IMG/VR virus record: IMGVR_UViG_3300029915_000005 | Length of the DNA: 64,000 bases | Direction: 5' to 3' (one strand) | DNA from: a virus | The notes under the pieces: model-generated | Seen by the model: the letters and a program-made list of their open reading frames with translations, nothing else | Database searches by the model: none | What the model was told of the DNA's origin: nothing | Part shown: positions 3,001 through 52,568 of the stretch, piece by piece | Numbering within the stretch: the stretch's first letter is position 1 | Layout: every line of letters starts with the position of its first letter | Translations under genes and position numbers: made by a program

Positions 3001-3260
3001 AAATCAATGAAAATCAAAAATTATGGAGAGAAGAAAATGTATCTCCTGATCAAATTGAATCAGAGCCTTCTGACTTGAGAAATCTTGGTATAACTGCTGG
3101 TGGTATTGATTCAGACTTACAAAACTTTGGTGGTGAAGAAGGTATGGGAGAAGAAATGCCAGAAGGCGGAGAAGAAGCTGCTCCTGGGGAAGGCACACCA
3201 GAAGGAGCTAATACTCCAGTTGCTGCTCAAGGCCCTGCACCAACTAGCTCAGGCGCTTAA
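99..3260 (+). CDS. gp20: Portal vertex protein (T4 gp20-like) containing an intein
   Basis: gp20 motifs DSEVNSALD, LLEDSIIIYRVQRAPERRVFKIDVG, IDDLKYFNNKMMRGLRIPSSYL; about 583 aa after removing the intein. Confidence 0.95.
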   Translation: MAWKKYFKKATPNQDGVFSPLSRRGGRSTGEDAVGVNSYPNLIQESYLGCPNRIERYQNFESMDQDSEVNSALDILAEFSTQSNEQDNMCFNVKFKEPPTETESKIIKKQLQSWYYLNEFNKRAFRLFRNVIKYGDQIFLRDPETFKLFYVEMDNVIKVIVNESKGKKPEQYIIRNMAPNFENLTATQVTANNLYNVVPSGPGFNAAGSGYNAPNSPYSSSSRFTKGLNEHAINAEHILHLSLTEGLDPNWPFGNSILELIFKVYKQKELLEDSIIIYRVQRAPERRVFKIDVGDMPQHLAMAFIEKVKNEMHQRRIPGRSDGGNFQDSTYFSMAPNADFFFPITSSGRGSSVEQLAGGCLKMDTKVPLLDGRTLSLIELTEEFQEGKENWVYSCNPETGEVVPGIISWAGVTHESAQVMKITLDNEEEIICTLDHKFPILEKGFVEAKDLSIGERFIPFNIQNREILKTRKKQYTQVYQNNTKKWEFVHRMIAHCLALENFVFDEQYKNSKKDVIHHKNFNRFDNSPSNLVRMAFKDHTDFHSYYGFSKDSQVLGTIAAKEKMEFIKINYPEKYKKLMKEKGKRHKEFWASLNIEERQQYIDIKKIGLQNYFKNLTDKERNIRIEEMMPTINSLIKASKDKLEKMNTDEDYYNWVCEHQQKGWDKFKKTPEAKIRGKKIGNDNRLRFSRPGYTENVFKNQRVKVDKQTLDYVQSLVLQKNKIKIVEAIKLFNDTDEYLNYYLNLNKETCCANWNNDRLTGSQLRNALKIRGYKNWKQFRDEVRLYNHAIVSIEYLSEPIQVGTLTIDKDEKYHNYHTFALASGIFTKNSNLNEIDDLKYFNNKMMRGLRIPSSYLPTGQDDSPSTINDGRVGTALIQEYRFNQYCERLQKLVCDPLDLEFKAYLKWSGINIDSSMFQLTFNPPQNFAHYRQAELDSSKISTFTQLEGYQYFSKRFLMERYLGMTSEEINENQKLWREENVSPDQIESEPSDLRNLGITAGGIDSDLQNFGGEEGMGEEMPEGGEEAAPGEGTPEGANTPVAAQGPAPTSSGA
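1176..2585 (+). mobile_element. Cis intein (470 aa) with internal HNH endonuclease in the portal
   Basis: Starts CLKMDTKVPLLDG, block B TLDHKF, ends HTFALASGIFTKN followed by Ser; HNH motif VHRMIA...IHHKNFNRFDNSPSNL. Confidence 0.9.
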
Positions 3261-3299: not shown

Positions 3300-3851
3300 A
3301 TGAATTTAACTGAAGAAATGACAAAATATAAAAATGTTATTAATGAGGATATCTTTGATTCTGTTAATGATTTTTTTAGTCCGATAACTAATATTATTCA
3401 ACCACAAACAGTTACGATGATTTACAAAAAAGATGGCAAGTATTATGAAAAATCTTTGCATATCAAAACTGGTATTCGCTTAGAAAGACTTAAAAATTGG
3501 TGCGACGATTATCTTGAAGGGTTTGGAGCAACTCCAGTTAGATTGACTGCTGAAAATGGAGCTTTTTTGGCCGGCAATAATAAGCTTCCTCCTCCAGAAT
3601 TAATCAATATTGAAGAAAGTTTCGAAAGTGTGCGAGATGAAAAAGATGAACATTTTTATGGAAAAGAAAATGATGATAAAAATTTAAATAATGCTTTAAA
3701 TGCCCCAATTAAGAAAAATAAATCTTATAAAGAAGGATATGAGGCTGCATTGGGTGAATTTTGGAATGAATATAGAAATATAATTGACAATTTAATCAAA
3801 AGGGATGAAGTAAAATCAATTTTATATAAATTGCTAGATAAAAACAAGTAA
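3300..3851 (+). CDS. Hypothetical, probable internal head (cargo) protein
   Basis: Late promoter and SD upstream; N-terminus MNLTEEMTKYKNVINE shared with 4437 and 7782; shares a module with 4437. Confidence 0.6.
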   Translation: MNLTEEMTKYKNVINEDIFDSVNDFFSPITNIIQPQTVTMIYKKDGKYYEKSLHIKTGIRLERLKNWCDDYLEGFGATPVRLTAENGAFLAGNNKLPPPELINIEESFESVRDEKDEHFYGKENDDKNLNNALNAPIKKNKSYKEGYEAALGEFWNEYRNIIDNLIKRDEVKSILYKLLDKNK

Positions 3852-4093: not shown

Positions 4094-4440
4094 TGAAGAT
4101 ATTTGAAATTGCTGCTAGATCAATTAATGATCCACTTGGCTATAAAACGCATCAATTAACTCTCCCTGATGATATTCATGGTCAAACTTTTCATTTAGAG
4201 TTTGTGGGATCCAGTAAAAAATTTCCAAATACAGTTAGAGCCAAATATGATAATGAAGAATTATATAATAAAGAATATATTGTTACAGTTTATGATCGTT
4301 TGACTAATGAAGTTGAAGTAATTCATTTGGGTCAAAATCATTTGAAAGTTACTTATGATTTCGCCAATCCTGAAGAAGCACAAGAGTATTTGGATGAATT
4401 TCATATTAAATTACTAATTGGAAAGGGGTATATAAAATGA
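4093..4440 (+). CDS. Hypothetical protein
   Basis: Translationally coupled (TAATG); MKIFEI N-terminus. Confidence 0.6.
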   Translation: MKIFEIAARSINDPLGYKTHQLTLPDDIHGQTFHLEFVGSSKKFPNTVRAKYDNEELYNKEYIVTVYDRLTNEVEVIHLGQNHLKVTYDFANPEEAQEYLDEFHIKLLIGKGYIK

Positions 4441-5171
4441 ACCTTATTGAAGAGATTTTTAAATATCGAGCAGTTATTATTAACGAAGAAAAAGAATTTT
4501 ATCTTGATGCGTTGAAAAGATTATTGAAAACTTCTGCTAAGAAAGGAGATACTGCTGCATATTTTTATTATGACCAATTATCAAATAAACCAAATGTAGT
4601 TGCATTCACAGAATTTGATAACTTTATTCATAGTTGGGCAGGAGGACTATGGAGAAGAAGATATAAGAATGAAATCCAAAATTTAGCAGATAAATTAAAT
4701 AGTGAAGATGCGAGCAGAGGTCTATCAAAAAAATGGATAGTTGAAAGTTTTGATAGTGTGAGAAATGAAAAAGATGAGCATTTTTATGCTCAAGAAAACG
4801 ACGATAAGAACTTAAAAAATGCTATTAACGATAATAACGATGAATTAAAAGAAATTGTCGATAAACATGCAAAGAATGGAATTAAAATTTCACTTTCAGT
4901 GCGACCAGATAGAATAATAGTTAACGTGATTAATGTAAAACCAGAAAATCGTAATAAAGGATTTGGCACAGCTCTTATGAAAGATTTATGCTCTTATGCT
5001 GACAAAGTTCAAAAAACGATGTTTTTAACACCCAGTAAAGATTTTGGAGCAACGTCTGTCAATAGATTAAAAAAATTTTATAGTGAATTTGGATTTAAAA
5101 GTAATAAAGGAAAAACTATAGATTTTTCTGCAAAAGAGACAATGATTAGAAAACCAACGAAACATAAGTAA
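4437..5171 (+). CDS. Modular protein with C-terminal GNAT acetyltransferase domain
   Basis: Acetyl-CoA motif A VKPENRNKGFGTALMKDL and LKKFYSEFGF. Confidence 0.75.
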   Translation: MNLIEEIFKYRAVIINEEKEFYLDALKRLLKTSAKKGDTAAYFYYDQLSNKPNVVAFTEFDNFIHSWAGGLWRRRYKNEIQNLADKLNSEDASRGLSKKWIVESFDSVRNEKDEHFYAQENDDKNLKNAINDNNDELKEIVDKHAKNGIKISLSVRPDRIIVNVINVKPENRNKGFGTALMKDLCSYADKVQKTMFLTPSKDFGATSVNRLKKFYSEFGFKSNKGKTIDFSAKETMIRKPTKHK

Positions 5172-5271: not shown

Positions 5272-6183
5272 ATGGCATCCAACAAATTTGAGAAGTTAAT
5301 TGAATACGTGGTAGCTAATGATGAAAAGAAAGCTCGTCAGCTTTTCCACAAAATCGTAGTTGAAAAGAGTCGCAAAATTTACGAGGATTTAGATATTGAA
5401 GATAATTCTCGGGCTTTTGACGAGGTTGAATCAGATGAAACTTCATTAGATGACGCTGCTGGTCCAGTTGATGAATTTGGCGGGGACGAAGTAGACGATC
5501 TAGAGCATGATACATTTTCAGAAGAAGGCGATGAAGATTTTGGTGAAGGATTGCCAACTGATGACGAATTTGGAGCAGAAGGCGAATTGACACCAGAAGT
5601 GGATGATCGTCTTGCTGATTTGGAATCAAGTTTCGATGAATTGAAAGCTGAATTTGAAGCATTGCTTGGCGATGAAGAAAAAACAGATGAAGATATTATC
5701 GATAAAAACGAAGACGAAGAAGAAGATATCGAAATTGAAGATGAAAATCTTGAAGACGATGAAGAAGCTGAAGAAGATTTAGAATCTGACGATTTAGAAT
5801 CTGAAGATTTAGATAGTGACGAAAAAGAAGAAGACGAAGACGAAGAAGAAGAGAAAGTTGAAGAAGATGAGCCAGTTGACGAAAGCGTAATTCGTGAGTA
5901 TGTTGACAAAGTAACTAAAGGTCTTGCCAATACTACAGAAGAGCCATCAACTAATAAGAAATCAGTAGTTGCTGGAAAGAATCCTCTTGGTGCAGGCTCT
6001 GCTAGTCCAAAGAACATTGTTGCTGGCGGAACTGAAAAAGGACGCACTGCTCCAACATCTGGTAAGTTTACCACAGAACCAATTGTAAACGTTCCTGGTG
6101 GAAAAGCTAAGTTAAAACCAGTTGCAAAACCAGTTACAACTAAAGAAGCAGAAGGAACAAACAAAAAGAGTAATTTGTCATAA
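5272..6183 (+). CDS. Highly acidic prohead core protein (gp67-like by position)
   Basis: SD AGGAG; D/E-rich centre; directly upstream of the protease. Confidence 0.6.
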   Translation: MASNKFEKLIEYVVANDEKKARQLFHKIVVEKSRKIYEDLDIEDNSRAFDEVESDETSLDDAAGPVDEFGGDEVDDLEHDTFSEEGDEDFGEGLPTDDEFGAEGELTPEVDDRLADLESSFDELKAEFEALLGDEEKTDEDIIDKNEDEEEDIEIEDENLEDDEEAEEDLESDDLESEDLDSDEKEEDEDEEEEKVEEDEPVDESVIREYVDKVTKGLANTTEEPSTNKKSVVAGKNPLGAGSASPKNIVAGGTEKGRTAPTSGKFTTEPIVNVPGGKAKLKPVAKPVTTKEAEGTNKKSNLS

Positions 6184-6196
6184 TTGTTAAGCAATG

Positions 6197-6239
6197 AAAT
6201 TGTGGCGAGGTGATTTTACATCGCCTCGCCACAATTTTT
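6197..6239 (+). terminator. Intrinsic terminator-like hairpin
   Basis: aaattgtggcgaggtgat / atcgcctcgccacaattt stem followed by T run. Confidence 0.7.
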
Positions 6240-6254
6240 AAGAGGGGAAATAAA

Positions 6255-6905
6255 ATGGAAAGAATTCCACTATTTGAATATCAACATCAAAGTGCAGTAG
6301 CTACAGAATTACTAGAAGCAGTAGATCCTTTGACTGGTGCTAAGAAAAAAGATTTATATATGAAAGGAATTTTCATTCAAGGTGACATAAGAAACCAAAA
6401 TCAAAGAGTTTATCCAGTTTATGAGATTAAGAAAGCTGTTGATTCTATTACGGCATTAATAAATGAAAATATTTCAATTTTCGGCGAAGGGGACCATCCG
6501 GCTGATTTAAAGATTAATCTTGATCGAGTGTCTCATGTTATTACAGGTATGTGGATGGAGGGAGCTAATGGTTTTGGAAAATTAAAAGTATTACCTACTC
6601 CAATGGGAAATATTATTAAAGCTATTCTTGAAAGTGGATGTAAATTGGGAGTTAGTTCTCGTGGTTCAGGAAATGTAAATGAATCTACAGGACAAGTTTC
6701 GGATTTTGAGATTATAACAGTGGATTGTGTATGTCAGCCAAGTGCTCCAAATGCATACCCTGTTCCAATTTACGAATCTCTAAAAAATTACAAAAGAAAT
6801 GGAGATAATTTATTGGAAATGGCAGCAGAGGTAAATTCAGATACTAAAGTACAAAAATATTTACAAAATGAAATAATTAGATTCATTAAGGACTTAAAAT
6901 TATAA
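6255..6905 (+). CDS. gp21: Prohead core protease (T4 gp21-like)
   Basis: GIFIQGDIRNQNQRVYP, GEGDHP, LGVSSRGSG motifs; ATG at 6255 follows SD GAGGGG. Confidence 0.95.
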   Translation: MERIPLFEYQHQSAVATELLEAVDPLTGAKKKDLYMKGIFIQGDIRNQNQRVYPVYEIKKAVDSITALINENISIFGEGDHPADLKINLDRVSHVITGMWMEGANGFGKLKVLPTPMGNIIKAILESGCKLGVSSRGSGNVNESTGQVSDFEIITVDCVCQPSAPNAYPVPIYESLKNYKRNGDNLLEMAAEVNSDTKVQKYLQNEIIRFIKDLKL

Positions 6906-7781: not shown

Positions 7782-8498
7782 ATGAATTTAACAGAAGAAA
7801 TTTCTAAATATAAAAATATCGTTAAAGAAGAATGGGATTATGGCAAGGGAATTTATGATAAAGCTCCTGTAAAAACAGTGTCATCTTCAACAAATGGCCC
7901 GCTGAAGAATGTTAAAGCAGAAGATAAAGAACCAACTCCAGCCAAACTAACCCCAGTTAAGAAAGAAGAAATAGTACAACCCAAAGAATTTCGATCAGCA
8001 AGAGACAAAAAGCCAGGTCCATTTACTAAAAAAGCAAAAGTTGAAGAAGCATGGAACAAAGAAATGAAAACCCCAGAAAGCAAGAAAGGCATGTTCAAGG
8101 GAAAAACAAAAGATGAATTAAAATCTGAATTATCAGCAGCTAAAGAACGCTCCAAGAAATTACATGATGCAGATAAGTCAGAGCCAGAATCATTGAAGAC
8201 TAAAATTAAAGAACTTGAATTTGCTTTAAGAGCGAAGAATAAGTTTGGTAAAGTAAGTGAATCTGTTGATATGAAAAGATGCAAAGGGTGTGGAAAGAAA
8301 ACAAAATCGAAATATTGCTCAGATGACTGTCGTGCTGAATATCTTAAATCCTATCTTAACTCAATGACTAAAGCTCCTTCAATCGCTAATGAGCGAGAAT
8401 TTAATCAAGGTTGGTCGGCTGCTTTAGATGAAGTATGTGAATATATTATTGGTGCTGGCTATCCAAAGTTGGCCAAAGAATTAAGAGAGAATTTTTAA
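7782..8498 (+). CDS. Hypothetical modular head-associated protein with zinc finger
   Basis: MNLTEEISKYKNIVKEE N-terminus; CKGC...YCSDDC after a KVSE site. Confidence 0.6.
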   Translation: MNLTEEISKYKNIVKEEWDYGKGIYDKAPVKTVSSSTNGPLKNVKAEDKEPTPAKLTPVKKEEIVQPKEFRSARDKKPGPFTKKAKVEEAWNKEMKTPESKKGMFKGKTKDELKSELSAAKERSKKLHDADKSEPESLKTKIKELEFALRAKNKFGKVSESVDMKRCKGCGKKTKSKYCSDDCRAEYLKSYLNSMTKAPSIANEREFNQGWSAALDEVCEYIIGAGYPKLAKELRENF

Positions 8499-8575: not shown

Positions 8576-9661
8576 ATGTTAGAGATCCTAAAACCACTTC
8601 TTGAAAGTGGATTAGTAAATGAAGAAACTCGCACAGCCATTAATGAAGCATGGCAAAGCAAGCTCAAAGAAGTTAAGTCTCAAGTAAGGACTGAAATTCG
8701 TGAAGAGTTTGCTGGTCGTTACGAGCATGATAAAGCAACTATGATTAAAACTCTTGATAAAATGGTTTCAGAGACACTAAGCAATGAAGTCAAACAAATC
8801 AAAGAAGAGCGCAATCAAGTAGCTAAATTGAAAATTCAAACAATCAAAGAAACTAAACAAGCAGCAGCAAAATTTAATAAATTTGCAACAAGAGCATTAG
8901 CTGAAGAATTGGCTGAATTTGCTCAAGAACGCAAATTAAGTGAAGCACACAAGAATAAATTAGAAAAATTTATTATGAGTTCTCTCGCAGAAGAAATTAA
9001 TGAGTTTGCTCAAGACAAAAAGAATTTAGTTGAAACAAAAGTTAAACTTATTTCAGAAGCAAAGAATCAATTAAATCTTTTGAAACAGAAATTTGTTGCA
9101 AGAAGCAGCAAAGCCGTAAGCGAGATAGTTGCACAAACATTGAATCATGAGCTAAAGCAACTACACGAAGATATTAAGATCGCCCGCCAAAATAATTTCG
9201 GACGTAAGATTTATGAAGCGTTCGCAACTGAATTCACTGGAACTTATCTTAACGAAAACGCAGAAGTTAAGAAACTGCGTAACGAAATTGAAAGAGTTAC
9301 TAATAAATTAACAGAAGCAAAGAAAGAAGTAGTAACAAAAACTAAATTAGTTGAATCAAAAGACAAAGACTTAACAATTATTAAAAATAGAGCAGAAAGA
9401 TCAAAGATTTTATCTGAATTATTTTCTCCTCTTGAAAAAAGCAAAAAAGAAGTAATGACTCAATTGTTAGAAAATGTGCAGACAAATCAGTTAAGATCAG
9501 CATATGATAAGTATTTGCCAGCAGTTTTAAATAATAGAACTAAGCCAGTTATTGAGACTGGTAAAGATTTGTTAAATGAATCAACTGGTAATAAAAACAA
9601 AGTAGTACCCGTCGAAGCGGATTCTTTAGTAGATATTAAACGTTTGGCAGGGCTAAAGTAA
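8576..9661 (+). CDS. gp22: Prohead core scaffold protein (T4 gp22-like)
   Basis: Coiled-coil, precedes capsid gene, many L/I/V-x-E sites, C-terminal IKRLAGLK. Confidence 0.85.
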   Translation: MLEILKPLLESGLVNEETRTAINEAWQSKLKEVKSQVRTEIREEFAGRYEHDKATMIKTLDKMVSETLSNEVKQIKEERNQVAKLKIQTIKETKQAAAKFNKFATRALAEELAEFAQERKLSEAHKNKLEKFIMSSLAEEINEFAQDKKNLVETKVKLISEAKNQLNLLKQKFVARSSKAVSEIVAQTLNHELKQLHEDIKIARQNNFGRKIYEAFATEFTGTYLNENAEVKKLRNEIERVTNKLTEAKKEVVTKTKLVESKDKDLTIIKNRAERSKILSELFSPLEKSKKEVMTQLLENVQTNQLRSAYDKYLPAVLNNRTKPVIETGKDLLNESTGNKNKVVPVEADSLVDIKRLAGLK

Positions 9662-9676
9662 ATAAAGGAGAATACA

Positions 9677-10861
9677 ATGTCAACACCATTATTGGAAAAT
9701 CGTTGGGCTGATACAAAAGCTGCCCTGCTCGAAGGACTTCAAGGTAATCGTAAGTCAGTTATGAGTACAGTCCTAGAGAACACTCGCAAATATTTGTCAG
9801 AAAGTGCAACAACTGGTTCTACTACTGCTGGCAATATTGCTACACTAAATCGCGTAATTCTGCCTGTAATTCGTCGAGTTATGCCAACAGTTATTGCCAA
9901 CGAACTTGTTGGTGTTCAGCCAATGACTGGACCAGTTGGACAGATTCAGACTTTGCGTGTTCGTTATGCACAGACTGATAATGTTACTGCTCCTTATCCT
10001 TGGAATACTGGAACTACAGCAGGAGATGAAGCATTAAGCCCATTCAAGATTGCAACAGCTTACTCTGGTAGTGCATCTACTGGTATGGCTGATTATACAG
10101 CTAATCTTGAAGGACAAGCTGGTAATAAAATTAACGTTCAAATTCTACGTCAGACAGTTGAAGCCAAGAGCCGCAAGCTATCTGCCCGCTGGACATTTGA
10201 AGCAGCACAAGATGCACAAGCAATGCACGGCATCGATGTGGAAGCTGAAATTATGGCTGCTCTTGCTCAAGAAATCACTGCTGAAATCGACCAAGAAATC
10301 ATTGGTTCATTGCAAGCACTTTCTGGAACAGATCAGACTTATGATCAGTCTCTAGTTTCTGGAACTGCAACTTATGTTGGTGACGAACATGCTGCTCTAG
10401 CAGTTATGATTAATCGTGCAGCTAACTTAATTGCACAACGCACTCATCGTGGCGCTGGCAACTGGGCAGTTGTAAGTCCAACAGCATTAACAGTATTGCA
10501 AAGTGCAACAACTTCAGCTTTTGCAAGAACCACTGAAGGAACATTTGAAGCACCAACAAATACAAAATTAGTTGGCACATTAAATGGATCAATGAAAATT
10601 TATGTAAATGGATATGCTCCAGATTCTCAGCCAGTGCTTGTAGGTTATAAAGGCGCTTCTGAGTCAGATGCAGCAGCTTTCTATTGTCCATATATTCCAT
10701 TGATGAGTTCTGGAGTTGTTCTTGATCCAGTCACATTCGAGCCAGTAACTAGCTTCTTGACTCGTTATGGATACGTTGAATTAACTAACAGCGCAAGTTC
10801 TTTGGGTAATGCTGCTGACTATCTCAGCAGTATCAACGTGGCAAATCTTTCATTTAGCTAA
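9677..10861 (+). CDS. gp23: Major capsid protein (T4 gp23-like)
   Basis: GVQPMTGPVG, VEAKSRKLSARWTFEAAQD, FYCPYIPL, TRYG motifs. Confidence 0.97.
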   Translation: MSTPLLENRWADTKAALLEGLQGNRKSVMSTVLENTRKYLSESATTGSTTAGNIATLNRVILPVIRRVMPTVIANELVGVQPMTGPVGQIQTLRVRYAQTDNVTAPYPWNTGTTAGDEALSPFKIATAYSGSASTGMADYTANLEGQAGNKINVQILRQTVEAKSRKLSARWTFEAAQDAQAMHGIDVEAEIMAALAQEITAEIDQEIIGSLQALSGTDQTYDQSLVSGTATYVGDEHAALAVMINRAANLIAQRTHRGAGNWAVVSPTALTVLQSATTSAFARTTEGTFEAPTNTKLVGTLNGSMKIYVNGYAPDSQPVLVGYKGASESDAAAFYCPYIPLMSSGVVLDPVTFEPVTSFLTRYGYVELTNSASSLGNAADYLSSINVANLSFS

Positions 10862-35352: not shown

Positions 35353-35787
35353 ATGCCAAAATACCATAAAGGATTTTATACTATTAAGAATAAAGAAAAG
35401 TATATAGGAAAAAGAGCGCCCATTTACAGAAGCGGCTGGGAAGCGACTTTTATGCAATTTTGTGATTTCAATCCCAATGTTTTGCAATGGGCCTCAGAAT
35501 CAATAGCAATTTTATATCAAGACCCATTAACTGGAAAGAAGAAAAATTATTATCCAGATTTCCTTGTTATATACAATGATAAAGATAATATTCGGAAAGC
35601 AGAAATTGTAGAAATTAAGCCCAGCACACAGACTGGACAAACAAAAACTAAAAGTAAAATAAATAATGCAGCAATTATTCGCAATCATGCTAAGTGGGCT
35701 GCTGCATTACAATACGCAGAAATGAATGGGCTTAATTTTCGTCTAATCACAGAGAATGAGTTGTTTGGTATTAAAGGAAAAATATGA
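35353..35787 (+). CDS. gp4: Head completion nuclease (T4 gp4-like, TnsA-type PD-(D/E)xK)
   Basis: YRSGWE, WASE, YYPDF, VEIKP, AKWAAA. Confidence 0.9.
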   Translation: MPKYHKGFYTIKNKEKYIGKRAPIYRSGWEATFMQFCDFNPNVLQWASESIAILYQDPLTGKKKNYYPDFLVIYNDKDNIRKAEIVEIKPSTQTGQTKTKSKINNAAIIRNHAKWAAALQYAEMNGLNFRLITENELFGIKGKI

Positions 35788-36902: not shown

Positions 36903-39900
36903 ATGGAAATGGAAAGAATATTAGCAGTATTTAATGCGATGCAGAATAATAATTTGACTGCCACACCTCCAACTTCATTAGTTTCTGAAGAAAATTCTTC
37001 ATATAAATGCGATCAATGTTATGATACTGGCGATAAAGATTGCAGTATTTGTAATGGCAAAGGTTATATAGATGAAGATTGGATGGAAAGTAGAAATTGC
37101 GCTCATTGCGATGCAAGTGGCAAAATTCCTTGTAGATGCAAAACTGATAGAGTAAATGAAGAACAAGAATGTTGGAAATGTAATGGTTCTGGAGTTAATT
37201 GCCCAGATTGCCAAGGTGCTGGAAGAGTTGAAAAAGTGAAAAATAAAAAAATTAACGAAGATTGGGGCAGCAGTGATACTTCTATTGCAATGCAGCAGAT
37301 GAAGCAGGATATGGAAGATTATCCTTCTGAAACATTAGAAGATGCTGCTTATGCGACTGCTGAAAGATTTTGGGATCAAATGGGATATTCCAATGTAGAA
37401 ATGGCAAAAGATAGACTGCTTCAACTATGGGAACTTAGAAAGAATAGAGGAAGATTTTTTGAATCTGCTGAACCTATTTCTAAAAATAATATTGAAGATT
37501 TGTATACAGAAGCAATGACACAATGTAATTTTATAACTCAACAATTTAAATTAATTAATCCAACTCGTAAATCAATAATTCAACAAAATTTAACTAATTT
37601 GGGAATTGAGTTTTTAGAAATTGGAAAAATGGCAAAAAATGCCATGAAATTTCTAATAGATGGCGATAAAGATCAAGCTATAGTTACATATCAATATGCT
37701 ATAAATAAACTGGATGATGCTTCAAATAAATGGGGAACATTGGTGGTTGAAAATAAATTAAATAAATTAAATAAAAATCACAAATGTTCATTTTGTGATG
37801 GGAATAAATATGTCCCAGAGCCTTTACCGACAAAAGATTTAGGAAATGGCAGTTTTACAACTGGTTCTAGAGCAGTGCCATGTAAATATTGCAATAAGAA
37901 TGGAAAACAAATTTCAGAATCTAAAGAAGTAATTTGTAAAAATTGCAGCGCGGATGGTGTAATCCCGTGCCAAGCTTGTAAGGGAAAAGATGGAAATTTT
38001 GAATGTAAAGAATGTTTTGGAGAAGGCGAAATAACTTGCAATAAATGTAAAGGGAAGGGATATGTTGAAATGAAAAAAGTTAATGAATGCGATACTATTG
38101 GCATTGAGCAAACAACTCCAAGCAATTTAACAATTAATACAAGCTATGATAGTTTAACTAATAAAAAGACGATTAATATTAGCGCAGATAATGAAAGAGC
38201 AGAAGAGTTGGATCGCATTCTTAAATTAAGTGGAATAATTCCTGATCGAACTCAAGTTGAAGAACCCATTGAAAAAGATAATTTTTATGGTCTAAGAGAA
38301 GATTTTAACTCTGATCCTGAAGATGAAATTGATTTTAGGGATAGTGATGAAAGTGTAGAACCAGGATTGTGTTGCAGATGTTCTTGGCCAATTGAAAATG
38401 ATGGTTTTGATTTTAGTGGTCTGTGTTATGATTGCTACAATAAAGTATCTGAAAAGTTAGAAGATAATTATTTGGAGAATGATAGATTTAATGAATCATT
38501 TCTTAGAGAATCAAGTGAATATATTGTTCGTGGAGAATTACCTGGGCTTAACTTATCTAACATGCGAACAGTTTATTTACATGTTATTAATGGAACTCCG
38601 ACATACTATGATTTTTGTGATAGAAATATGGCAACTAAGTTTTCTGATTTAGAAGAAGCTAAACAAAAAGCTGCTCATTTTAAAAGAGATTGGGATTACA
38701 TTCACATTCAAAATGTTAAAGTTGTTCCACTTGGGATTAATGAAAGTTCAATTGATGTAAAAGCTATAAAGAATTTTGATTGTCCAAGATGCAAAGCTAA
38801 AAAAGGCGATGAATGCCATACATCTGAGGGAGAACGCATTGTTTTCCCACATGAAGAGCGTGTTAAAAAAGCTGAAAAAGTAAATGAAAGTAAATATTCA
38901 ACATTAGTAGATACTTGTAAAGTTTGTGGCGATAAATTATATTTTAACAATTCATCCCATATATGGATTCATGATGATCCAACGATTACAAATAAACATA
39001 ATCATAAAGCTGTTCCAAAACAACATAAAGAAAACGGAATGCCATTAGAAGAATCTTCAGAACCAAAGAGAATTAAACATCCAGGCGTTCAATGTGCTGG
39101 GAAAGATTGCAAGAAAGCTGCTCGATGGAGAATGACTGATGGAAAATTAATGTGTGATGGCTGCAAATCTAAAGGAAAAATAAATGAATGGGTGGGTAGT
39201 ATTGAACCATCTGTTGGGCCAATTTCAAGATTTCTTAAAGAGAAAGGTTTTAAATTAGGAGCATCTAATAATTCTTATTCTCATTGGACTTATGGTAATT
39301 TTACCGTAACTTTATATCCAGGAAAATTTGATGGTAAACGTACTCCAAGAACAACTTGGGCAATTTATAGTGGAAATACTCGCGTACCATCAATGCATGG
39401 TGCTGGTCTTACAGAATTAGAAAGAGCAATAAATGCTTCCATTATTCCTATGAATGAATCATGGCAAGATAAGCGTGATAATGAACTACGTGTTAAAGGA
39501 AATTTTGGAAAATGCGTTAGTTGTGGGGAAGATGTTGGAAAACACAATGAAGAAGAATCTAAAAAATGTATGGATAAAAAGAAGGATAAAAATATGAATG
39601 AAGCATTGACACCAAAGAGAGAAAATTCAGGATTAAATGGCGCATCAAGAGGTTGGGCAAACAGTCCCAATGAGCAAATCGCTGGTTGGAGAGCATTGGT
39701 TGATGATGCTGATGGTCCAAATAAACCAAAAGAAATGTTGAATAAAATCAAAGGTAATGATAACACAATGACTGTTGTTGCCAATGAAAAAGATAAACCT
39801 TTGCATGAAAATAAACAAATTAATGTCATTGCTGAAAAACTAAGCAAGAAATTTACTTCTTTAAATGAAAACGAAGCAAGATATGCAGCAAACCAGCTTA

Positions 39901-40394
39901 ATTTTAATCATGTTGAAAGAAAATTAAAAGAAGCTGGCTTCAAACACAATCCTGAAAAGGAAGCTGAAATTAATCGTTCTGCTCATATTTTTACTGGAAA
40001 TAATGGAAGTTTTGTTTCAGTATCCAAAGATGGAAAATGGGACTGGGCATATCATCATGACGAAACATTGGATGAAGGTTCAGGAAAAGCTTCTTTATTA
40101 GATTTAATTTATCAGTTTCTTATGGATGAATATAATTCTGGAGAATGGGAATCAGAACCATCATTAGAAGATGAATTAGAAGCAAATGCAGCTTTTGATG
40201 AAGAACCAATGATGGAAGATTCAAAATCAGAACATGATAAGGCTGTGGATGCAGCATTTGATCAAAATGAAAAATATGGAAAGATGCTTTCAGCATTAGA
40301 CAAACAGCCAAATATATTTTCAAAAGCAGCGAAAAGAATGGGAAAAGTTTCCAAAGATTATAAACCAGCAGGAGTTCCAGTTAGGGAGAAATAA
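36903..40394 (+). CDS. Modular zinc-finger-rich protein, putative protease-processed polyprotein
   Basis: About 10 Cys/His clusters and other small domains separated by recurring [VILM]-N/S/E-E sites. Confidence 0.7.
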   Translation: MEMERILAVFNAMQNNNLTATPPTSLVSEENSSYKCDQCYDTGDKDCSICNGKGYIDEDWMESRNCAHCDASGKIPCRCKTDRVNEEQECWKCNGSGVNCPDCQGAGRVEKVKNKKINEDWGSSDTSIAMQQMKQDMEDYPSETLEDAAYATAERFWDQMGYSNVEMAKDRLLQLWELRKNRGRFFESAEPISKNNIEDLYTEAMTQCNFITQQFKLINPTRKSIIQQNLTNLGIEFLEIGKMAKNAMKFLIDGDKDQAIVTYQYAINKLDDASNKWGTLVVENKLNKLNKNHKCSFCDGNKYVPEPLPTKDLGNGSFTTGSRAVPCKYCNKNGKQISESKEVICKNCSADGVIPCQACKGKDGNFECKECFGEGEITCNKCKGKGYVEMKKVNECDTIGIEQTTPSNLTINTSYDSLTNKKTINISADNERAEELDRILKLSGIIPDRTQVEEPIEKDNFYGLREDFNSDPEDEIDFRDSDESVEPGLCCRCSWPIENDGFDFSGLCYDCYNKVSEKLEDNYLENDRFNESFLRESSEYIVRGELPGLNLSNMRTVYLHVINGTPTYYDFCDRNMATKFSDLEEAKQKAAHFKRDWDYIHIQNVKVVPLGINESSIDVKAIKNFDCPRCKAKKGDECHTSEGERIVFPHEERVKKAEKVNESKYSTLVDTCKVCGDKLYFNNSSHIWIHDDPTITNKHNHKAVPKQHKENGMPLEESSEPKRIKHPGVQCAGKDCKKAARWRMTDGKLMCDGCKSKGKINEWVGSIEPSVGPISRFLKEKGFKLGASNNSYSHWTYGNFTVTLYPGKFDGKRTPRTTWAIYSGNTRVPSMHGAGLTELERAINASIIPMNESWQDKRDNELRVKGNFGKCVSCGEDVGKHNEEESKKCMDKKKDKNMNEALTPKRENSGLNGASRGWANSPNEQIAGWRALVDDADGPNKPKEMLNKIKGNDNTMTVVANEKDKPLHENKQINVIAEKLSKKFTSLNENEARYAANQLNFNHVERKLKEAGFKHNPEKEAEINRSAHIFTGNNGSFVSVSKDGKWDWAYHHDETLDEGSGKASLLDLIYQFLMDEYNSGEWESEPSLEDELEANAAFDEEPMMEDSKSEHDKAVDAAFDQNEKYGKMLSALDKQPNIFSKAAKRMGKVSKDYKPAGVPVREK

Positions 40395-40395
40395 C

Positions 40396-40716
40396 GTGAA
40401 AACAAGTGCAGAATTATTAAGAGAATATTCCTCTATGATTAAAGAAGACGAAGATGATTTTGATGCTTCAGATTTTAATGAAAATGAACCAGACGATTTT
40501 GAAGAAATGAATCGCAACGAAGCTGATGATTATAGAAATGAAAGTTCTTCAGATATGGACAACGACGACAATCCAGTTAGTAAATTAGTAGATTATTTAG
40601 ATGCTGAAACAAATAATGAGTTTGATTTTACTACACTTATCAGTCAATTTATGAAGGAAAATAATTATGAATTAGTTCCTACTAATAGTTTGGAGAATTC
40701 TACTGGGAATGTATAA
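40396..40716 (+). CDS. Acidic hypothetical protein
   Basis: GTG start after GGAG; MKTSAELLRE N-terminus. Confidence 0.6.
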   Translation: MKTSAELLREYSSMIKEDEDDFDASDFNENEPDDFEEMNRNEADDYRNESSSDMDNDDNPVSKLVDYLDAETNNEFDFTTLISQFMKENNYELVPTNSLENSTGNV

Positions 40717-41146: not shown

Positions 41147-42481
41147 ATGAAAATAGATGAAGTTCTTAAAATTGGAAAAATAAAGCCAGGAGGTTTTCGC
41201 AAAATTTCTCCTAAGAGAGTCAATGATGTAATTGGATTTATTCAAAACAATTGTACGGATATTTTATCTACATACAAACAAACAAACAAATTACTTTATC
41301 GTGGTACAAAAGAATTTAACTTTTTAAGAAGTCCAGAATTTTTTTTAAAAAAATCCTATGATAAAAGAATACCAAAAGATACTATCAAAAAATATCAAGA
41401 TCAGTTAGATAGAAAATTAAAAGAAGCTGGATTTGAAGCATTAAGAAGTAACAGTATTTTTACAACTGGACAAGAAAGTACAGCAGATTCTTATGGAGAT
41501 AAGTATGCTATATTTCCAATTGATGGATTTTCATATACTTGGGCGGAAGGAGTAGAAGATTTAACTACTAAATATGGGTTGACTGATGAACATGAGCACG
41601 GAGATTTTAAACACGATTTGGAATTTTCTAAAGCAAAAGATTTTATAAAAGATTATCATTTTAGAAATGATGATTTAAAACAGGCGATAAAAAATAAAGT
41701 AGAAGTTTATATTCATGGAACATTTGTTGCAGTAAAAGCAGAACATGGATTATTTGAAATTATAATGTATGCATTGTTTGAAAATAAAATTGCTGAATTG
41801 TTTATAAAAGAAAGATTAAAAGTTGATGGAACTTTATTACAATACATAAAAAATCCAACCAAAACAATGATTTTTACAGCATTAAAAAAATCAGGAAATG
41901 CTATTAAATTTGTAAATAATCCGACGTATGCAATGCAACTGGCTGCTGTTAATAGTTTTGGATGCTCTATACAATACATAGAAAATCCAAGCGAAGAATT
42001 AAAACTGGCTGCGGTTTCTGAGAATCCATATGCTTTAAAATATATAAAAGATCCAAGTTATCAACTTCAAAAAATGGCAATAGAAAACGATGGTACTATA
42101 ATTTATTATATAGAAAGACCAACTGAAGAATTACTAGTAATGGCTGTATCTGACTATCCTTCAATATTTGGAAGTATAGTTAATAAATTACCCAAAAATA
42201 AAATGTCATTAAAAGTATTACTAGCTGCTGTTAAAGATGTATCAAATCTTAGATTTATAAAAGAAATATTTGGAAGTATACCATTACAAGTTCAGATGGC
42301 AGCAGTAAAACACGATGCTTTTGCAATGCAATGGTTACGCGATGCGTCTAAAGAAGTACAGATAGCAGCAATAAAACAAAATAATACTGTTGTTCGTAAT
42401 CTTTCTAATTTTCCATGGTGTACAGAAGCAAGAGATTTGGCATATAAACTATCAGGAATGAAGAAAGTTAACGATAAATAG
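41147..42481 (+). CDS. RSNSIFCT-family (ART-like) domain fused to 22-aa helical repeats (DUF4116-like)
   Basis: LYRG, RIPKDT, ALRSNSIFTT, EVYIHG, then IQYIENPSEELKLAAV-type repeats. Confidence 0.7.
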   Translation: MKIDEVLKIGKIKPGGFRKISPKRVNDVIGFIQNNCTDILSTYKQTNKLLYRGTKEFNFLRSPEFFLKKSYDKRIPKDTIKKYQDQLDRKLKEAGFEALRSNSIFTTGQESTADSYGDKYAIFPIDGFSYTWAEGVEDLTTKYGLTDEHEHGDFKHDLEFSKAKDFIKDYHFRNDDLKQAIKNKVEVYIHGTFVAVKAEHGLFEIIMYALFENKIAELFIKERLKVDGTLLQYIKNPTKTMIFTALKKSGNAIKFVNNPTYAMQLAAVNSFGCSIQYIENPSEELKLAAVSENPYALKYIKDPSYQLQKMAIENDGTIIYYIERPTEELLVMAVSDYPSIFGSIVNKLPKNKMSLKVLLAAVKDVSNLRFIKEIFGSIPLQVQMAAVKHDAFAMQWLRDASKEVQIAAIKQNNTVVRNLSNFPWCTEARDLAYKLSGMKKVNDK

Positions 42482-42714: not shown

Positions 42715-44286
42715 ATGAAAAATCAAGCGGATTACTCATTAATTAAAAAACCACACAGACCAATGGCTTTTACAACGGATCAGTTGAAGGAGTTCGCAAA
42801 ATGTGCTGACCCAATAACTGGTCCTGCTTATTTTTTAAATAATTATTTTTGGACGCAACATCCAACAAAAGGAAAGTTACAATATCATCCATATGATTAT
42901 CAAGAAAATATGCTTAATGTTATGCATAATAATAGAAAAAGTGTTTTATTATGCGGCAGACAATTAGGAAAAACTATTACTGCTGCTGGATATTTATTAT
43001 GGTGTGCATCTTTCACTTCAGATTTAACGGTTATGATAGCAGCCCACAAATTTTCATTTGCTACTGAAGTTATGGTTAGAATTAAATATGCTTATGAATC
43101 AATACCAGATTTTTTACGAGCAGGAGTAGTAGAATATAATAAACAGTCAATAACATTCGATAATGGTTCAAGAATAATATCTCAAACTACTACACCCACT
43201 ACTGGTAGAGGATTCTCAGTTGGATTATTCTTTGTTGATGAATTTTCTTATGTAGCTCCGTCTATTCAAGAAGCATTTTATACATCAATTTCTCCAACAT
43301 TGTCAACTGGTGGTAAAATTATTATTTCTTCGACGCCGCAAAGTAATGAGGACAAATTTGCTAATATATGGAATGAAGCTAATAAAACTGTTGATGCAAA
43401 TGGAGATACTATTGCTGGAGAAGTTGGAATTAATGGATTTAAAGCATTTAAAGCGTTATGGTATGAACACCCAGAAAGAGATGAAAAGTGGGAAGCAGAA
43501 GCAAGAGCTGACTTAGGCCCTGAAAAATTTTTGAGAGAGCATCTTTGTGAATTTATTATTGATGAAGAAACATTGATTAATCCTTTCAAATTAAATCAAC
43601 TACAAGGGATAGAACCAATAGAAAAACAAGGCCAAATAAGATGGTATGGAAGACCTATAAAAGATAATACTTATTTAGTAGCTCTTGATCCTAGTTTTGG
43701 AACTGGGGGAGACCCAGCAGCCATTCAAGTTATAGAATGTGAAACATTGAAACAAATTGCTGAATGGACACATAATAAAACAGTTATTGAAAAGCAAGTA
43801 GATTTATTAAAAGAAATAACTACTCAATTGGTCAATGTTACGCCAAACGATAAAGTTTTTTGGAGTGTAGAAAATAATAATTTAGGAGAAGCAGTTCTTG
43901 TAACTATTAGAAATATTGGGGAAGAAAATATTCCAGGAATATTTTTATCAGAGCCAGTAAAACTTGGTCAATCAAGAAAATTTAGAAAAGGATTTTGCAC
44001 AACTAACTCTAGTAAATTAACTGCTTGCGCAAAATTAAAGAAATTAATTGAAAGTGATAAATTAAAAATATATAGTAAAAAATTAATAAGTGAATTAAAA
44101 ACGTTTATCGCTGTTGAAAATACATACAAAGCAAAAACTGGCGAAACTGATGATTTGGTTACATCAATGTTAACTAATATAAGAATGCTAACTTTAATTC
44201 AAACCTATATTCCTAATTTAGATGAAGAAAAAGAAGAATCGGATGAAGATATTCCATTGCCATTTTTTGTTGAGCACTATTGGTAA
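42715..44286 (+). CDS. gp17: Terminase large subunit (T4 gp17-like)
   Basis: Walker A GRQLGKT, Walker B FFVDE, nuclease ALDPS and TDDLV. Confidence 0.95.
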   Translation: MKNQADYSLIKKPHRPMAFTTDQLKEFAKCADPITGPAYFLNNYFWTQHPTKGKLQYHPYDYQENMLNVMHNNRKSVLLCGRQLGKTITAAGYLLWCASFTSDLTVMIAAHKFSFATEVMVRIKYAYESIPDFLRAGVVEYNKQSITFDNGSRIISQTTTPTTGRGFSVGLFFVDEFSYVAPSIQEAFYTSISPTLSTGGKIIISSTPQSNEDKFANIWNEANKTVDANGDTIAGEVGINGFKAFKALWYEHPERDEKWEAEARADLGPEKFLREHLCEFIIDEETLINPFKLNQLQGIEPIEKQGQIRWYGRPIKDNTYLVALDPSFGTGGDPAAIQVIECETLKQIAEWTHNKTVIEKQVDLLKEITTQLVNVTPNDKVFWSVENNNLGEAVLVTIRNIGEENIPGIFLSEPVKLGQSRKFRKGFCTTNSSKLTACAKLKKLIESDKLKIYSKKLISELKTFIAVENTYKAKTGETDDLVTSMLTNIRMLTLIQTYIPNLDEEKEESDEDIPLPFFVEHYW

Positions 44287-44316: not shown

Positions 44317-45897
44317 ATGCTAAAAGAAAATACCAGTTCATATGTATTTGAATTTTTAAAATCCCGCTTTGAATTGGGAGAAGCAGTCGATGAAAATGGC
44401 AATTCTACTACAACTCCAGAAGATATGCGAGTTTTTTCTTTTGATTTTAAGAATAAAAAAGGAGAAGACCTTGGTTGTGTAGTTTGTAGTCTGGTTGATG
44501 ATAGCGAGTCCTCAAATTCTTTAAAAATTTATTTTGGAGATGAATTAGCAAATGTTGATGCTGAATATCAAAAAGAGTGGTTGGATTTTCTTAAAAGCAT
44601 TAGACAATTTGCCAAAATACATATGCTTGGTTTTGATATAAGAAATATTAATAAATCAACTATTACTAGAAGAGATGTTGACCCAATGTTTGAAAGTTCT
44701 TTTGGACCGATTGATGGCACAGTGAGAACTAGCCGCCAGCCATTGGAAAATATGCAAATAATTATTAAACATACTGCAAATGTTGATCCTAAAATTAAAA
44801 ATTCAAGAAGTAGAAAAATTCAAAAGATATATCTTGCTAATAATCAAGGAGAAAAGTTTTTACTTCCATTCAAGAGTTTAATGGCTGCAAGAGCAATGGC
44901 TCGTCATATATATGCTGGTGGGACCCCATATGATGCAGTTGGTTCTGATATTTGTAGTTTAGTTGAAGAAATGGTTTCTCTAAGCAAATTCGTTAGAAAA
45001 ATGAAATCAAATACTTATGAAAATCCAGAAGCCATTAATGCAATTAATTCATCTATAGAAAGAATTCATGATATTAAACGCCAATTATCTAGTTTAAGTT
45101 CTCAAGGTGGTTATGATAAAAATAAACCATCTTTGACTGGAAATATGGGAAAATTAGAAGAAGATGAAGATATGCCTGATTTGTTTAATAATGAATCTCT
45201 AGATGACGAAAATAAAATGGCACTTCCTCATGTTATGAGAGCATATAGAAATAGAAAAACTCCAACAGAGACTGGTGAGTTTGAACAATGGGCAAATTCA
45301 GTTTCAACTGGCGAACCAGAACCAGGTGAAGAAATTTTGACAGATGAAGAGCAGAAAATATGTGGCACTTGCCCAAACACTATAGAAGGTAATGGTTTTG
45401 ATGATTCAGGATTGTGTCAAGATTGTTACAAATACAGTAGAAATCAAGAAGAATCTGATAGATATTGGGAACATAATAATTCATTGGATGAATCAGAAAC
45501 ATGGCAAGATAAATTGACTCAATGGGTAAATAGCAGTTTGGTTGATCCAAAATTAGAAGCAATTATAAAAGAAAGAGTCCCAACATTATATGCTCGTCTG
45601 GAAGATTTGAGACATGGCCGGGCAGCAGAAAAAATAACTAATAATGAAAAAATAAGAATAGAAAAAGCATTGAGAGCCATGTCTAAATTGACAGAAGCTG
45701 ATATGCCATCGTCTGCTGGTTCTGGCTCTCCTTTATCATATCCAAATTTAAAACCAATGGACGATTTTCACTCACCCAAAGAAATTAAAAAATTGAAAAA
45801 TACAATCGGTAAAGAAAGTCCACTTTCACTTATTTCAAGCAAAGAGAAATTAGAAGAAAGTGAATTAAATGATATTATTCGATTAAGCGGAAGATAA
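44317..45897 (+). CDS. Hypothetical head-associated protein with zinc-finger module and scaffold-like C-terminus
   Basis: CGTC...GLCQDCY module; ends ELNDIIRLSGR. Confidence 0.6.
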   Translation: MLKENTSSYVFEFLKSRFELGEAVDENGNSTTTPEDMRVFSFDFKNKKGEDLGCVVCSLVDDSESSNSLKIYFGDELANVDAEYQKEWLDFLKSIRQFAKIHMLGFDIRNINKSTITRRDVDPMFESSFGPIDGTVRTSRQPLENMQIIIKHTANVDPKIKNSRSRKIQKIYLANNQGEKFLLPFKSLMAARAMARHIYAGGTPYDAVGSDICSLVEEMVSLSKFVRKMKSNTYENPEAINAINSSIERIHDIKRQLSSLSSQGGYDKNKPSLTGNMGKLEEDEDMPDLFNNESLDDENKMALPHVMRAYRNRKTPTETGEFEQWANSVSTGEPEPGEEILTDEEQKICGTCPNTIEGNGFDDSGLCQDCYKYSRNQEESDRYWEHNNSLDESETWQDKLTQWVNSSLVDPKLEAIIKERVPTLYARLEDLRHGRAAEKITNNEKIRIEKALRAMSKLTEADMPSSAGSGSPLSYPNLKPMDDFHSPKEIKKLKNTIGKESPLSLISSKEKLEESELNDIIRLSGR

Positions 45898-51866: not shown

Positions 51867-52568
51867 ATGAATGAAAAAGCACAACTGGCTGCTGTTCAAC
51901 AAAATGGTCGTGCAATTGAATACATCGACAATCCAAGCGAAGCTGTGCAACTGGCTGCTGTTCAACAAAATGGTTGTGCAATTTACCACATCAGCAAGCC
52001 AAGCGAAGCTGTGCAACTGGCTGCTGTTCAAGAAGATGGTTGTGCAATTGAATACATCAGCAAGCCAAGCGAAGCTGTGCAACTGGCTGCTGTTCAAGAA
52101 GATGGTTATGCAATTCAATTCATCAGCAATCCAAGCGAAGCTATGCAAATGGCTGCTGTTCAACAAAATGGTTATGCAATTCAATTCATCAGCAATCCAA
52201 GCGAAGCTGTGCAACTGGCTGCTGTTCAAGAAGATGGTTGTGCAATTCAATTCATCAGCAATCCAAGCGAAGCTGTGCAAATGGCTGCTGTTCAAGAAAA
52301 TGGTTATGCAATTCAATTCATCAGCAATCCAAGCGAAGCTGTGCAACTGGCTGCTGTTCAAGAAGATGGTTGTGCAATTCAATTCATCAGCAATCCAAGC
52401 GAAGCTGTGCAAATGGCTGCTGTTCAAGAAAATGGTTATGCAATTCAATTCATCAGCAATCCAAGCGAAGCTGTGCAACTGGCTGCTGTTCAACAAAATG
52501 GTTGTGCAATTAAATTCATAAAAAATCCAACAATTAATGTCAAATTAGTGGCTAAATTGCTGTCTTAA
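51867..52568 (+). CDS. Tandem 22-aa helical repeat protein (DUF4116-like)
   Basis: Ten copies of AVQ(L/M)AAVQ(Q/E)(N/D)G(C/Y)AIxxIxxPSE. Confidence 0.8.
   Translation: MNEKAQLAAVQQNGRAIEYIDNPSEAVQLAAVQQNGCAIYHISKPSEAVQLAAVQEDGCAIEYISKPSEAVQLAAVQEDGYAIQFISNPSEAMQMAAVQQNGYAIQFISNPSEAVQLAAVQEDGCAIQFISNPSEAVQMAAVQENGYAIQFISNPSEAVQLAAVQEDGCAIQFISNPSEAVQMAAVQENGYAIQFISNPSEAVQLAAVQQNGCAIKFIKNPTINVKLVAKLLS
51880..52530 (+). repeat. 66-bp coding tandem repeat, about 10 units
   Basis: Near-identical contiguous units with no spacers. Confidence 0.9.

Follow-up and report, generated by a model that had tools for sequence, protein, structure and literature searches.

A mosaic mini-domain protein of a T4-type phage as a candidate polyprotein for the prohead protease

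In phage T4, the prohead protease gp21 cuts after L/I-x-E, cleaves the scaffold many times and also cuts itself, and small fragments of the core proteins mostly exit the prohead (PMC9026906). The propeptides of head proteins in phage SPN3US are also cut at multiple positions after Glu, with a preference for Ser at P1' (PMC10052503). Polyvalent proteins, in turn, are believed to accompany the DNA on delivery and to be split into separate units, and their authors drew an analogy to the polyproteins of RNA viruses (Iyer, Burroughs, Anand, de Souza and Aravind, 2017; PMC5512222). Here we analyse an open reading frame (ORF) at positions 36903-40394 (+ strand) of a 64,000-nucleotide stretch of viral DNA (IMG/VR record IMGVR_UViG_3300029915_000005; henceforth the window), whose product (henceforth the focal protein) appears from its sequence to be a polyprotein that is loaded into the prohead and cut there by the Peptidase_S77 protease of the phage, a reading to which we assign a probability of roughly 55%. 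That the resulting pieces are also injected and act in the host is possible, though we would sooner doubt it than expect it. We found no phage mini-domain polyprotein cut by a prohead protease described in the literature outside subscription journals, where our searches returned only the paper on polyvalent proteins and those on processing in T4, SPN3US and phiKZ.

The focal ORF is intact and open and encodes 1163 amino acids (aa; 131.7 kDa, isoelectric point 5.6). A preliminary description of the window, made from its letters alone, had divided the product into about 18 mini-domains bounded by hydrophobic-x-Glu sites, and we could reproduce the ORF and all the motif coordinates that it quoted, for example VNE↓E at 37152-37160, ISE↓S at 37911-37919, INE↓S at 38736-38744, MNE↓A at 39594-39602 and LNE↓N at 39861-39869 (the arrow marks the predicted cut). 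The 18 best sites divide the focal protein into 19 pieces of 20-116 aa, henceforth modules:

36903-36989, + strand: module 1, N-terminal leader with a helix at aa 3-17, then ATPPTS and the end V-S-E↓E at aa 29
36990-37259, + strand: modules 2-3, DnaJ-like Cys-rich zinc modules with 8 and 4 Cys, ending in VNE↓E and INE↓D
37260-37751, + strand: modules 4-5, both helical; module 4 begins D-W-G-S-S-D and has a predicted local distance difference test (pLDDT) score of ~90
37752-37919, + strand: module 6, zinc module ending in ISE↓S
37920-38087, + strand: module 7, double zinc finger resembling BSD2/DnaJ-CR with 8 invariant Cys, ending in VNE↓C
38088-38300, + strand: module 8, beta-beta-alpha module found family-wide, with E-L-D-R-I-L-K-L-S-G-I at 38205-38237
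38301-38744, + strand: modules 9-10, an acidic zinc ribbon followed by an alpha/beta module, with FNE↓S, LRE↓S and INE↓S as junctions
38745-38888, + strand: module 11, Phage_zn_bind_8 zinc finger between INE↓S and VNE↓S
38889-39602, + strand: modules 12-15, of which the first is of Cys/His type, the second a zinc ribbon (S-S-E-P-K-R-I-K...), the third alpha/beta and the last a small zinc module, with LEE↓S, INE↓W, MNE↓S and MNE↓A as junctions
39603-39869, + strand: modules 16-17, beginning with the family's best-conserved stretch, which is predicted to be disordered (W-A-N-x-P-N-E-Q-I-A-G-W...D-D-A-D-G-P-N), followed by L-H-E↓N, a 20-aa helix and L-N-E↓N
39870-40217, + strand: module 18, alpha/beta domain
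40218-40391, + strand: module 19, basic, helical and C-terminal

A Cys or Cys/His cluster (≥3 Cys or Cys/His) is present in nine of the 19 modules, close to the ten or so zinc-binding modules counted before, and several carry CxxCxGxG; the zinc ribbon of module 9 follows the pattern C..C..E-x-D-G-F-D-x-S-G-L-C-x-D-C-Y. The linkers are short, with a conserved Lys-rich hydrophobic-(Asn/x)-Glu↓Ser motif, and most modules belong to no known family. Contrary to what had been stated, not all modules are unrelated: the DnaJ-like zinc modules at aa 30-119 and 340-395 cross-match each other.

How does this protein compare with the described systems? Like the T4 internal proteins (IPs) IPI, IPII and IPIII and the protein Alt (PMC9026906), it belongs to a T4-type phage with a Peptidase_S77 protease, has an N-terminal leader ending in hydrophobic-x-Glu, and would supply small, fast-evolving cargo that is presumably loaded into the prohead, freed by the protease and injected. 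In T4, each cargo protein has its own gene and leader and is cut once, whereas here a single gene with a single leader serves about 19 modules and every joint bears a cut signal; the focal protein also lacks similarity to the IPs or their targeting sequence, and may have a second targeting motif, a copy of the scaffold tail. Polyvalent proteins (PMC5512222) likewise hold many distinct domains in one polypeptide encoded beside virion genes, but they have a peptidase of their own built in (MPTase and others), and their domains are mostly large and enzymatic (DNA methylase, ParB nuclease, ADP-ribosyltransferase, helicase). In the focal protein, by contrast, no peptidase domain was found, and its mini-domains of 20-116 residues would rely on the capsid protease in trans. 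Neither the focal protein nor 36 relatives matched a peptidase family (E 1e-3), a search that a very divergent peptidase could escape, and the only family matches among them were to zinc fingers, with no polyvalent-type enzymatic domains. The polyprotein strategy that the preliminary description proposed for a double-stranded DNA (dsDNA) phage has a precedent in the polyvalent proteins (PMC5512222). Its predictions at the level of sequence held. By analogy, the focal protein would work like the T4 IP/Alt system and the polyvalent proteins, and it is a member of neither.

Core proteins and propeptides of head proteins offer a further comparison, as T4 gp22, gp67 and gp68 and the propeptides of phiKZ and SPN3US (PMC9026906, PMC10052503) are also cases of one head protein cut repeatedly after Glu. 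These are helical or acidic spacers or propeptides whose fragments are mostly discarded, whereas the segments of the focal protein are folded, Cys-rich and mobile; with a gp22-type scaffold it shares just a seven-residue tail motif, the scaffold being a separate gene (8576-9661). PA5oct gp281 (YP_010678933.1, 'structural protein, ESI-MS/MS', that is, electrospray ionisation tandem mass spectrometry) is alike in its place between a small structural gene after the head-closure gene and the terminase, in its I-L-R-L-A-G-type motifs followed by h-x-E↓S (h, hydrophobic residue), and in its many h-x-E sites. It differs in having 498 aa and few cysteines and in showing no BLASTP similarity to the focal protein; nor did gp281 or gp279 of PA5oct show BLASTP similarity to the ORFs that neighbour the focal gene in the window. 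The parts of the PA5oct paper covered here do not discuss the processing of virion proteins.

The head genes of the window that bear on the proposed cutting are the following:

6210-6905, + strand: head maturation protease of the T4 gp21 family (Pfam Peptidase_S77, PF03420; PHROG 207)
8576-9661, + strand: scaffold, a separate conserved coiled-coil protein with the C-terminus D-I-K-R-L-A-G-L-K
9677-9802, + strand: capsid propeptide with the end Y-L-S-E↓S, aligned by eye with the annotated F-L-T-E↓A of T4 gp23
9677-10861, + strand: capsid protein

The protease matches PF03420 with 87 bits against a cut-off of 27 and is 33% identical to T4 gp21 over 163 aa (E 1e-21), so that the phage has a true T4-type prohead protease, as had been supposed, and this enzyme is the presumed cutter of the focal protein. 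It very probably keeps the specificity of the T4 enzyme, because Y-L-S-E↓S in the capsid propeptide matches F-L-T-E↓A of T4 and its L-x-E is invariant in 20 relatives. The motifs LVNE, AINE, YLNE, KLTE and LLNE, previously reported for the scaffold, are present in ORF 8576-9661, and YLSE↓S is present in the capsid protein. Homologues of the scaffold occur in PA5oct and Rak2-like phages.

We then counted the junction motif in the ORFs of the window, with expected counts computed from each ORF's own composition. The focal ORF has 35 copies of [VILMF]-x-E against 22 expected (z 3.3), at a density of 3.0 per 100 aa compared with 3.4 in the terminase, and the plain motif alone proves little because its density is no higher than there. 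More specific forms stand out. [VILMF]-N-E occurs ten times in the focal ORF (1.8 expected) and five times in the scaffold (0.9 expected), where h-x-E sites overall number 26 against 12.8 expected. The extended motif h-x-E-[S/A] is found 12 times in the focal ORF against 3.1 expected (z 5.3), the top excess of all ORFs in the window; the runners-up are the scaffold (z 4.7) and the protease (z 4.2), and the remaining ORFs (15,815 aa) hold 55 copies against 40.5 expected. What discriminates is the extended form of the motif, together with where it stands and how well it is conserved, and nothing else. The proposal to compare motif frequency with that of proteins outside the virion thus gave a divided answer, negative for plain h-x-E, which does not exceed the terminase, and positive for the S/A-extended form, which is highest in the focal ORF, the scaffold and the protease.

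The position of the sites was read from an AlphaFold2 model of the focal protein (36-row alignment, mean pLDDT 60), in which confident mini-domains are separated by low-confidence stretches. In segments of low pLDDT, a hydrophobic residue occupies P3 at 21 of 51 Glu (41%), compared with a hydrophobic frequency of 19.7% (p 4e-4); among the 56 Glu of confident domains, 17 have one there, compared with a frequency of 26.6%, which is not significant. The linker sites prefer Asn at P2 (9/21) and Ser at P1' (7/21). Most of the 18 sites listed in the preliminary description lie within low-confidence stretches or a few residues from a domain edge, and its expectation that sites lie in linkers agrees with the confinement of the h-x-E excess to the low-pLDDT segments of the model.

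Two large searches returned 22 proteins with E < 1e-10 and 93 with E < 1e-3, all metagenomic. The relatives are mosaics with four common elements and different modules in between: the leader, a DnaJ/BSD2-like double finger (module 7, present in almost all relatives), the beta-beta-alpha module, which in the family ends A-E-E-L-x-x-I-L-K-L-S-G, and a conserved core (W-A-N-x-P-N-E-Q-I-A-G-W...) that is apparently disordered. Most full-length relatives keep the leader, M-D-M-x-x-I-L-x-V-F-N-x-L-Q-N-N-N-x-S-A-T-P, which ends in V-D-E↓A or V-K-E↓A where the focal protein has V-S-E↓E. The junction Glu residues have a mean identity of 0.66, compared with 0.30 for other linker Glu (p 2e-4) and 0.38 for other linker residues (p 5e-4), and eight of them are invariant among the first five proteins (28-48% identity). 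Junction codons vary from site to site (Ser is TCT, TCA or AGT), and because they differ, the conservation of the junctions is at the protein level. Across the family, h-x-E-[S/A] occurs 172 times against 56 expected; proteins that have just a zinc finger or the D-W-G-S-S-D helical module in common with the focal protein, and are otherwise unrelated, show no excess. A family-wide enrichment of k-mers was set aside as inflated by shared descent.

Modules are gained, lost and moved at the sites, as the preliminary description had suggested might be seen among orthologues. Module 11 (S-S-I-D...K-V-N-E) follows module 10 in the focal ORF and lies between modules 17 and 18 in the relatives P0002 and P0007, with L-N-E or L-T-E as its boundaries in these two and x-N-E or x-T-E on both sides in every context; P0003-5 and P0014 lack modules 14-15, which are an insertion between two junctions, and in these relatives module 13 leads directly to the core junction; and module 6 directly precedes the core module in P0007. 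Modules are thus inserted or moved whole, from the residue after one Glu through the next Glu. In an all-against-all BLAST of 21 family proteins, 286 starts of high-scoring segment pairs (HSPs) fell within 6 aa of a site, compared with 180 ± 15 in a shifted-motif null, and 279 HSP ends compared with 192 ± 15, both peaking right at the h-x-E motif; the counts are of related HSPs, not of independent events. Modules also occur as genes of their own: a homologue of module 19, P0028, is a free-standing 68-aa gene inside a contig of other DNA, among other small genes, and the 66-aa P0036 is similar to the same module.

Further recurrences of family segments were seen. Modules of the module 4 type (37260-37463, starting D-W-G-S-S-D-W) recur inside or at the end of the unrelated long proteins P0032, P0046 and P0071, always directly after hydrophobic-x-Glu, and P0071 also has a Lar-like restriction-alleviation zinc ribbon that scores slightly under the Pfam cut-off. 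A short ORF follows the focal gene:

40396-40716, + strand: 106-aa ORF directly downstream, with an acidic segment D-D-F-E-E-M-N-R-N-E-A-D-D-Y-R that is internal in P0002, P0006 and P0012

Recognisable folds are few. The single Pfam match above threshold is Phage_zn_bind_8 at aa 625-658 (module 11), and PHROG gave no meaningful match for the focal protein. Module 7 matches the BSD2/DnaJ zinc finger of 6ekb in Foldseek (E 0.011; template-modelling (TM) score 0.66 by target), and scores 11.8 bits with Pfam BSD2_CRD, below the cut-off of 27, with 8 invariant Cys in a CxxC..G pattern; BSD2_CRD (E 1.6e-8) and DnaJ_CXXCXGXG (E 3.6e-8) each match one member of the alignment, the region of the match being unassigned. 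With the whole model, the BSD2/DnaJ finger was the sole Foldseek match, and a feature search of the ESM Atlas gave nothing usable. No Pfam or PHROG family of internal head proteins was matched by the focal protein. When aa 963-1082 (39789-40148) were folded alone, a confident alpha/beta domain resulted (pLDDT 83), whose best structural rows (T4 MotA C-domain, Z 5.6; PsiB, Z 5.0; SUKH-like, TM 0.43) are below noise, and we draw no function from them.

A possible means of entry into the prohead is a short motif, [D/E]-[I/L]-x-[K/R]-L-[S/A]-G, which the scaffold carries as its C-terminal tail both here and in phage Cassandra, and which also ends the ORF after the terminase in the window and in the loci of two relatives (L001 and L002). 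A strict seven-residue scan of the window in six frames found only the tails of the scaffold and of ORF 44317-45897; the ILKLSG of module 8, with Arg at the first motif position, was found by eye and with a looser search. In PA5oct, gp281 has two strict copies and one looser copy and gp278 has one copy, and both proteins are annotated in RefSeq as detected in the virion by ESI-MS/MS. From these sequences we infer that the ILKLSG-type motif is a putative docking motif for the prohead interior. A complex prediction for the capsid protein with module 8 scored 0.00 without controls, and counts neither for nor against binding. The leader of module 1 is likewise a candidate capsid-targeting propeptide by its sequence, and the ORF after the terminase is a candidate for a second head cargo protein:

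44317-45897, + strand: second candidate cargo ORF, sharing the zinc ribbon of module 9 and ending N-D-I-I-R-L-S-G-R

Its positional counterparts (L001 18497-19918 and L002 14707-16107) end D-I-I/V-R-L-S-G.

Other ORFs near the protease have leaders of their own. ORFs 3300-3851, 4437-5171 and 7782-8498 begin with a common 17-aa leader, M-N-L-T/I-E-E..K-Y-K/R..I/V-x-N/K-E↓, and are otherwise different proteins, ORF 4437 having an acetyltransferase-like C-terminus; judged by sequence, the shared leader looks like a T4 IP-type capsid-targeting sequence. Between the leader-bearing ORFs and the protease, 5272-6183 encodes a protein of 303 aa, 20% of them Glu, in which long acidic runs occur; it may be the counterpart of the T4 core proteins gp67/gp68, and phage Cassandra has an acidic protein at the equivalent position.

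On our reading of the focal protein as a prohead-loaded polyprotein, its gene would be expressed together with the adjacent neck and terminase genes, and the product would be drawn into the prohead core, probably through the leader at its N-terminus, through the internal I-L-K-L-S-G as a copy of the scaffold tail, or through both. Once activated, the gp21-type protease (6210-6905) would cut after the junction Glu residues, as expected for the scaffold and the capsid propeptide, and free ~15-19 pieces of 2-13 kDa. We favour the view that at least the folded, basic or DNA-binding ones would be retained in the head and reach the host together with the DNA, as T4 IPI-III do. If the pieces are retained and injected, a single late gene would supply the host-bound mini-proteins as an exchangeable set.

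Several points speak against this proposal, in addition to the unremarkable density of the plain motif and the relatedness of the HSPs in the boundary counts. About 9 of the 38 h-x-E sites lie inside confident helices, strands or domains of the model and would probably not be cut, and L-H-E 969 and L-N-E 989, which flank a 20-aa helix beside a confident domain, are less certain as sites, the latter being in a loop of a confidently modelled region. Low pLDDT is also not the same as a linker, the alignment being shallow (36 rows) and the N-terminal zinc modules not modelled. The focal leader is dissimilar to the T4 capsid-targeting sequence and to the leader of ORFs 3300, 4437 and 7782. The phage is uncultured, the focal protein is known from sequence alone, and tblastn against 50,697 records of cultured phages gave no match for the whole focal protein or its core (aa 890-1075). 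As for the fate of the pieces, those of 2-8 kDa might be lost rather than injected because T4 core fragments mostly exit, and no focal module has a demonstrated anti-defence or takeover function.

The matter of small pieces leads to one alternative, that the focal protein is an auxiliary core or scaffold protein, loaded and cut at its junctions merely for clearance like T4 gp22/gp67/gp68, with pieces that have no role in the host. It would account for a motif pattern that matches the scaffold's and for the shared C-terminal motif of the scaffold; most of the predicted pieces are small (2-10 kDa), the T4 core fragments mostly leave the head (PMC9026906), and the universal DnaJ/BSD2-like finger could be an assembly chaperone. 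We nevertheless judge this alternative unlikely: clearance has no obvious need for ~9 folded zinc modules or a zinc finger of DNA-binding type, leaves the rapid swapping of modules among relatives unexplained, and sits poorly with a free-standing homologue of module 19 among small genes, which suggests a function of its own, and with a true scaffold that is a separate conserved coiled-coil protein. Nor need the protein be cut at all. As an uncut string of zinc fingers it might act whole, as a late assembly chaperone or holdase, a nucleic-acid binder or a full-length internal head protein, with hydrophobic-N-E-S kept for the structure of the linkers or for binding a common partner. Whole-acting proteins with many zinc fingers are common, the recognisable folds here are all zinc fingers of the DnaJ/BSD2 type, which are chaperone modules in other systems, the plain motif has an ordinary density, and the focal protein was read without direct sign of cleavage.

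An uncut protein would leave unexplained that the scaffold and the protease are where the extended motif otherwise accumulates, that modules change their order freely and occur as separate genes, and that conservation is higher at the junction Glu than in the remainder of the linker. The conserved leader with its h-x-E end also fits a propeptide, and we regard an uncut protein, too, as improbable. The mobility of the modules could also be sought in the DNA itself, with the junction as a recombination signal whose microhomology aids shuffling and no signal in the protein. Modules do move as cassettes that include one junction, and A-A-T-G-A-A recurs at many junctions. The shared DNA, however, amounts to at most six bases, AATGAA, which are the dominant codons of Asn (86/96) and Glu (97/107) in an AT-rich gene; the P3 and P1' codons differ between sites, and the motif is also enriched in the scaffold and the protease, which are not mosaic. 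A DNA-level signal is therefore very hard to credit.

The setting of the focal gene is the structural region of a T4-type myophage (G+C ~31%), where it lies in a tight block with neck and terminase genes on the same strand:

99-3260: portal
35353-35787: head-closure gene
42715-44286: large terminase

In two relatives on long contigs, the position of the focal gene between neck/gp15 genes and the terminase is kept. The window shows no enrichment of the T4 late promoter TATAAATA, with 13 copies where 10.9 are expected, and no TATAAATA lies just upstream of the focal gene; because this promoter is neither enriched nor just upstream, late expression of the gene rests on gene order only. The nearest cultured relatives of the phage are PA5oct and Rak2/GAP32-like jumbo phages, with identities of up to 71% for the capsid protein, 50% for the terminase and 37% for the scaffold, and megablast of the 15 kb surrounding the focal gene against cultured phages found no match. 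The capsid protein family (9677-10861) is abundant in metagenomes, with at least 8000 candidates at E < 1e-20; among the 120 matches listed, the relatives are 79-100% identical, on contigs of up to 289 kb, and the phage lineage with this capsid protein is widespread and mostly uncultured. Two other features of the region were recorded. The portal ORF (99-3260) has 1053 aa, with its best portal match at aa 39-359 and an HNH endonuclease match at aa 462-569, and an HNH or intein-like element appears to have been inserted into the gene. Repeats of the DUF4116 type (P-S-E-A-V-Q-L-A-A-V-Q...) occur in ORFs 41147-42481 and 51867-52568 and as one module within the family member P0013.

Taken furthest, the proposal is that a widespread uncultured lineage related to T4 (PA5oct/Rak2-like) keeps a freely reshuffled library of mini-proteins in one late gene, taken into the prohead by the leader and the mimic of the scaffold tail, diced in trans by the capsid protease and injected as factors of takeover or anti-defence in the first minutes, which we put forward tentatively and consider doubtful on present evidence. 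The ILKLSG-type motif may show how scaffold and cargo dock inside the heads of PA5oct/Rak2-like phages. If the focal protein is cut as predicted, a dsDNA phage uses its capsid protease as RNA viruses use the proteases of their polyproteins, and the first proteins to enter the host could be a swappable kit. Dozens of unnamed mini-domain families would then be candidates for early takeover and anti-defence functions. With its span from the residue behind one Glu to the following Glu, the joint would offer phage cargo a natural plug-in format, and the leader with its hydrophobic-x-Glu↓Ser joints would be a portable format for loading foreign proteins into capsids of the T4 type.

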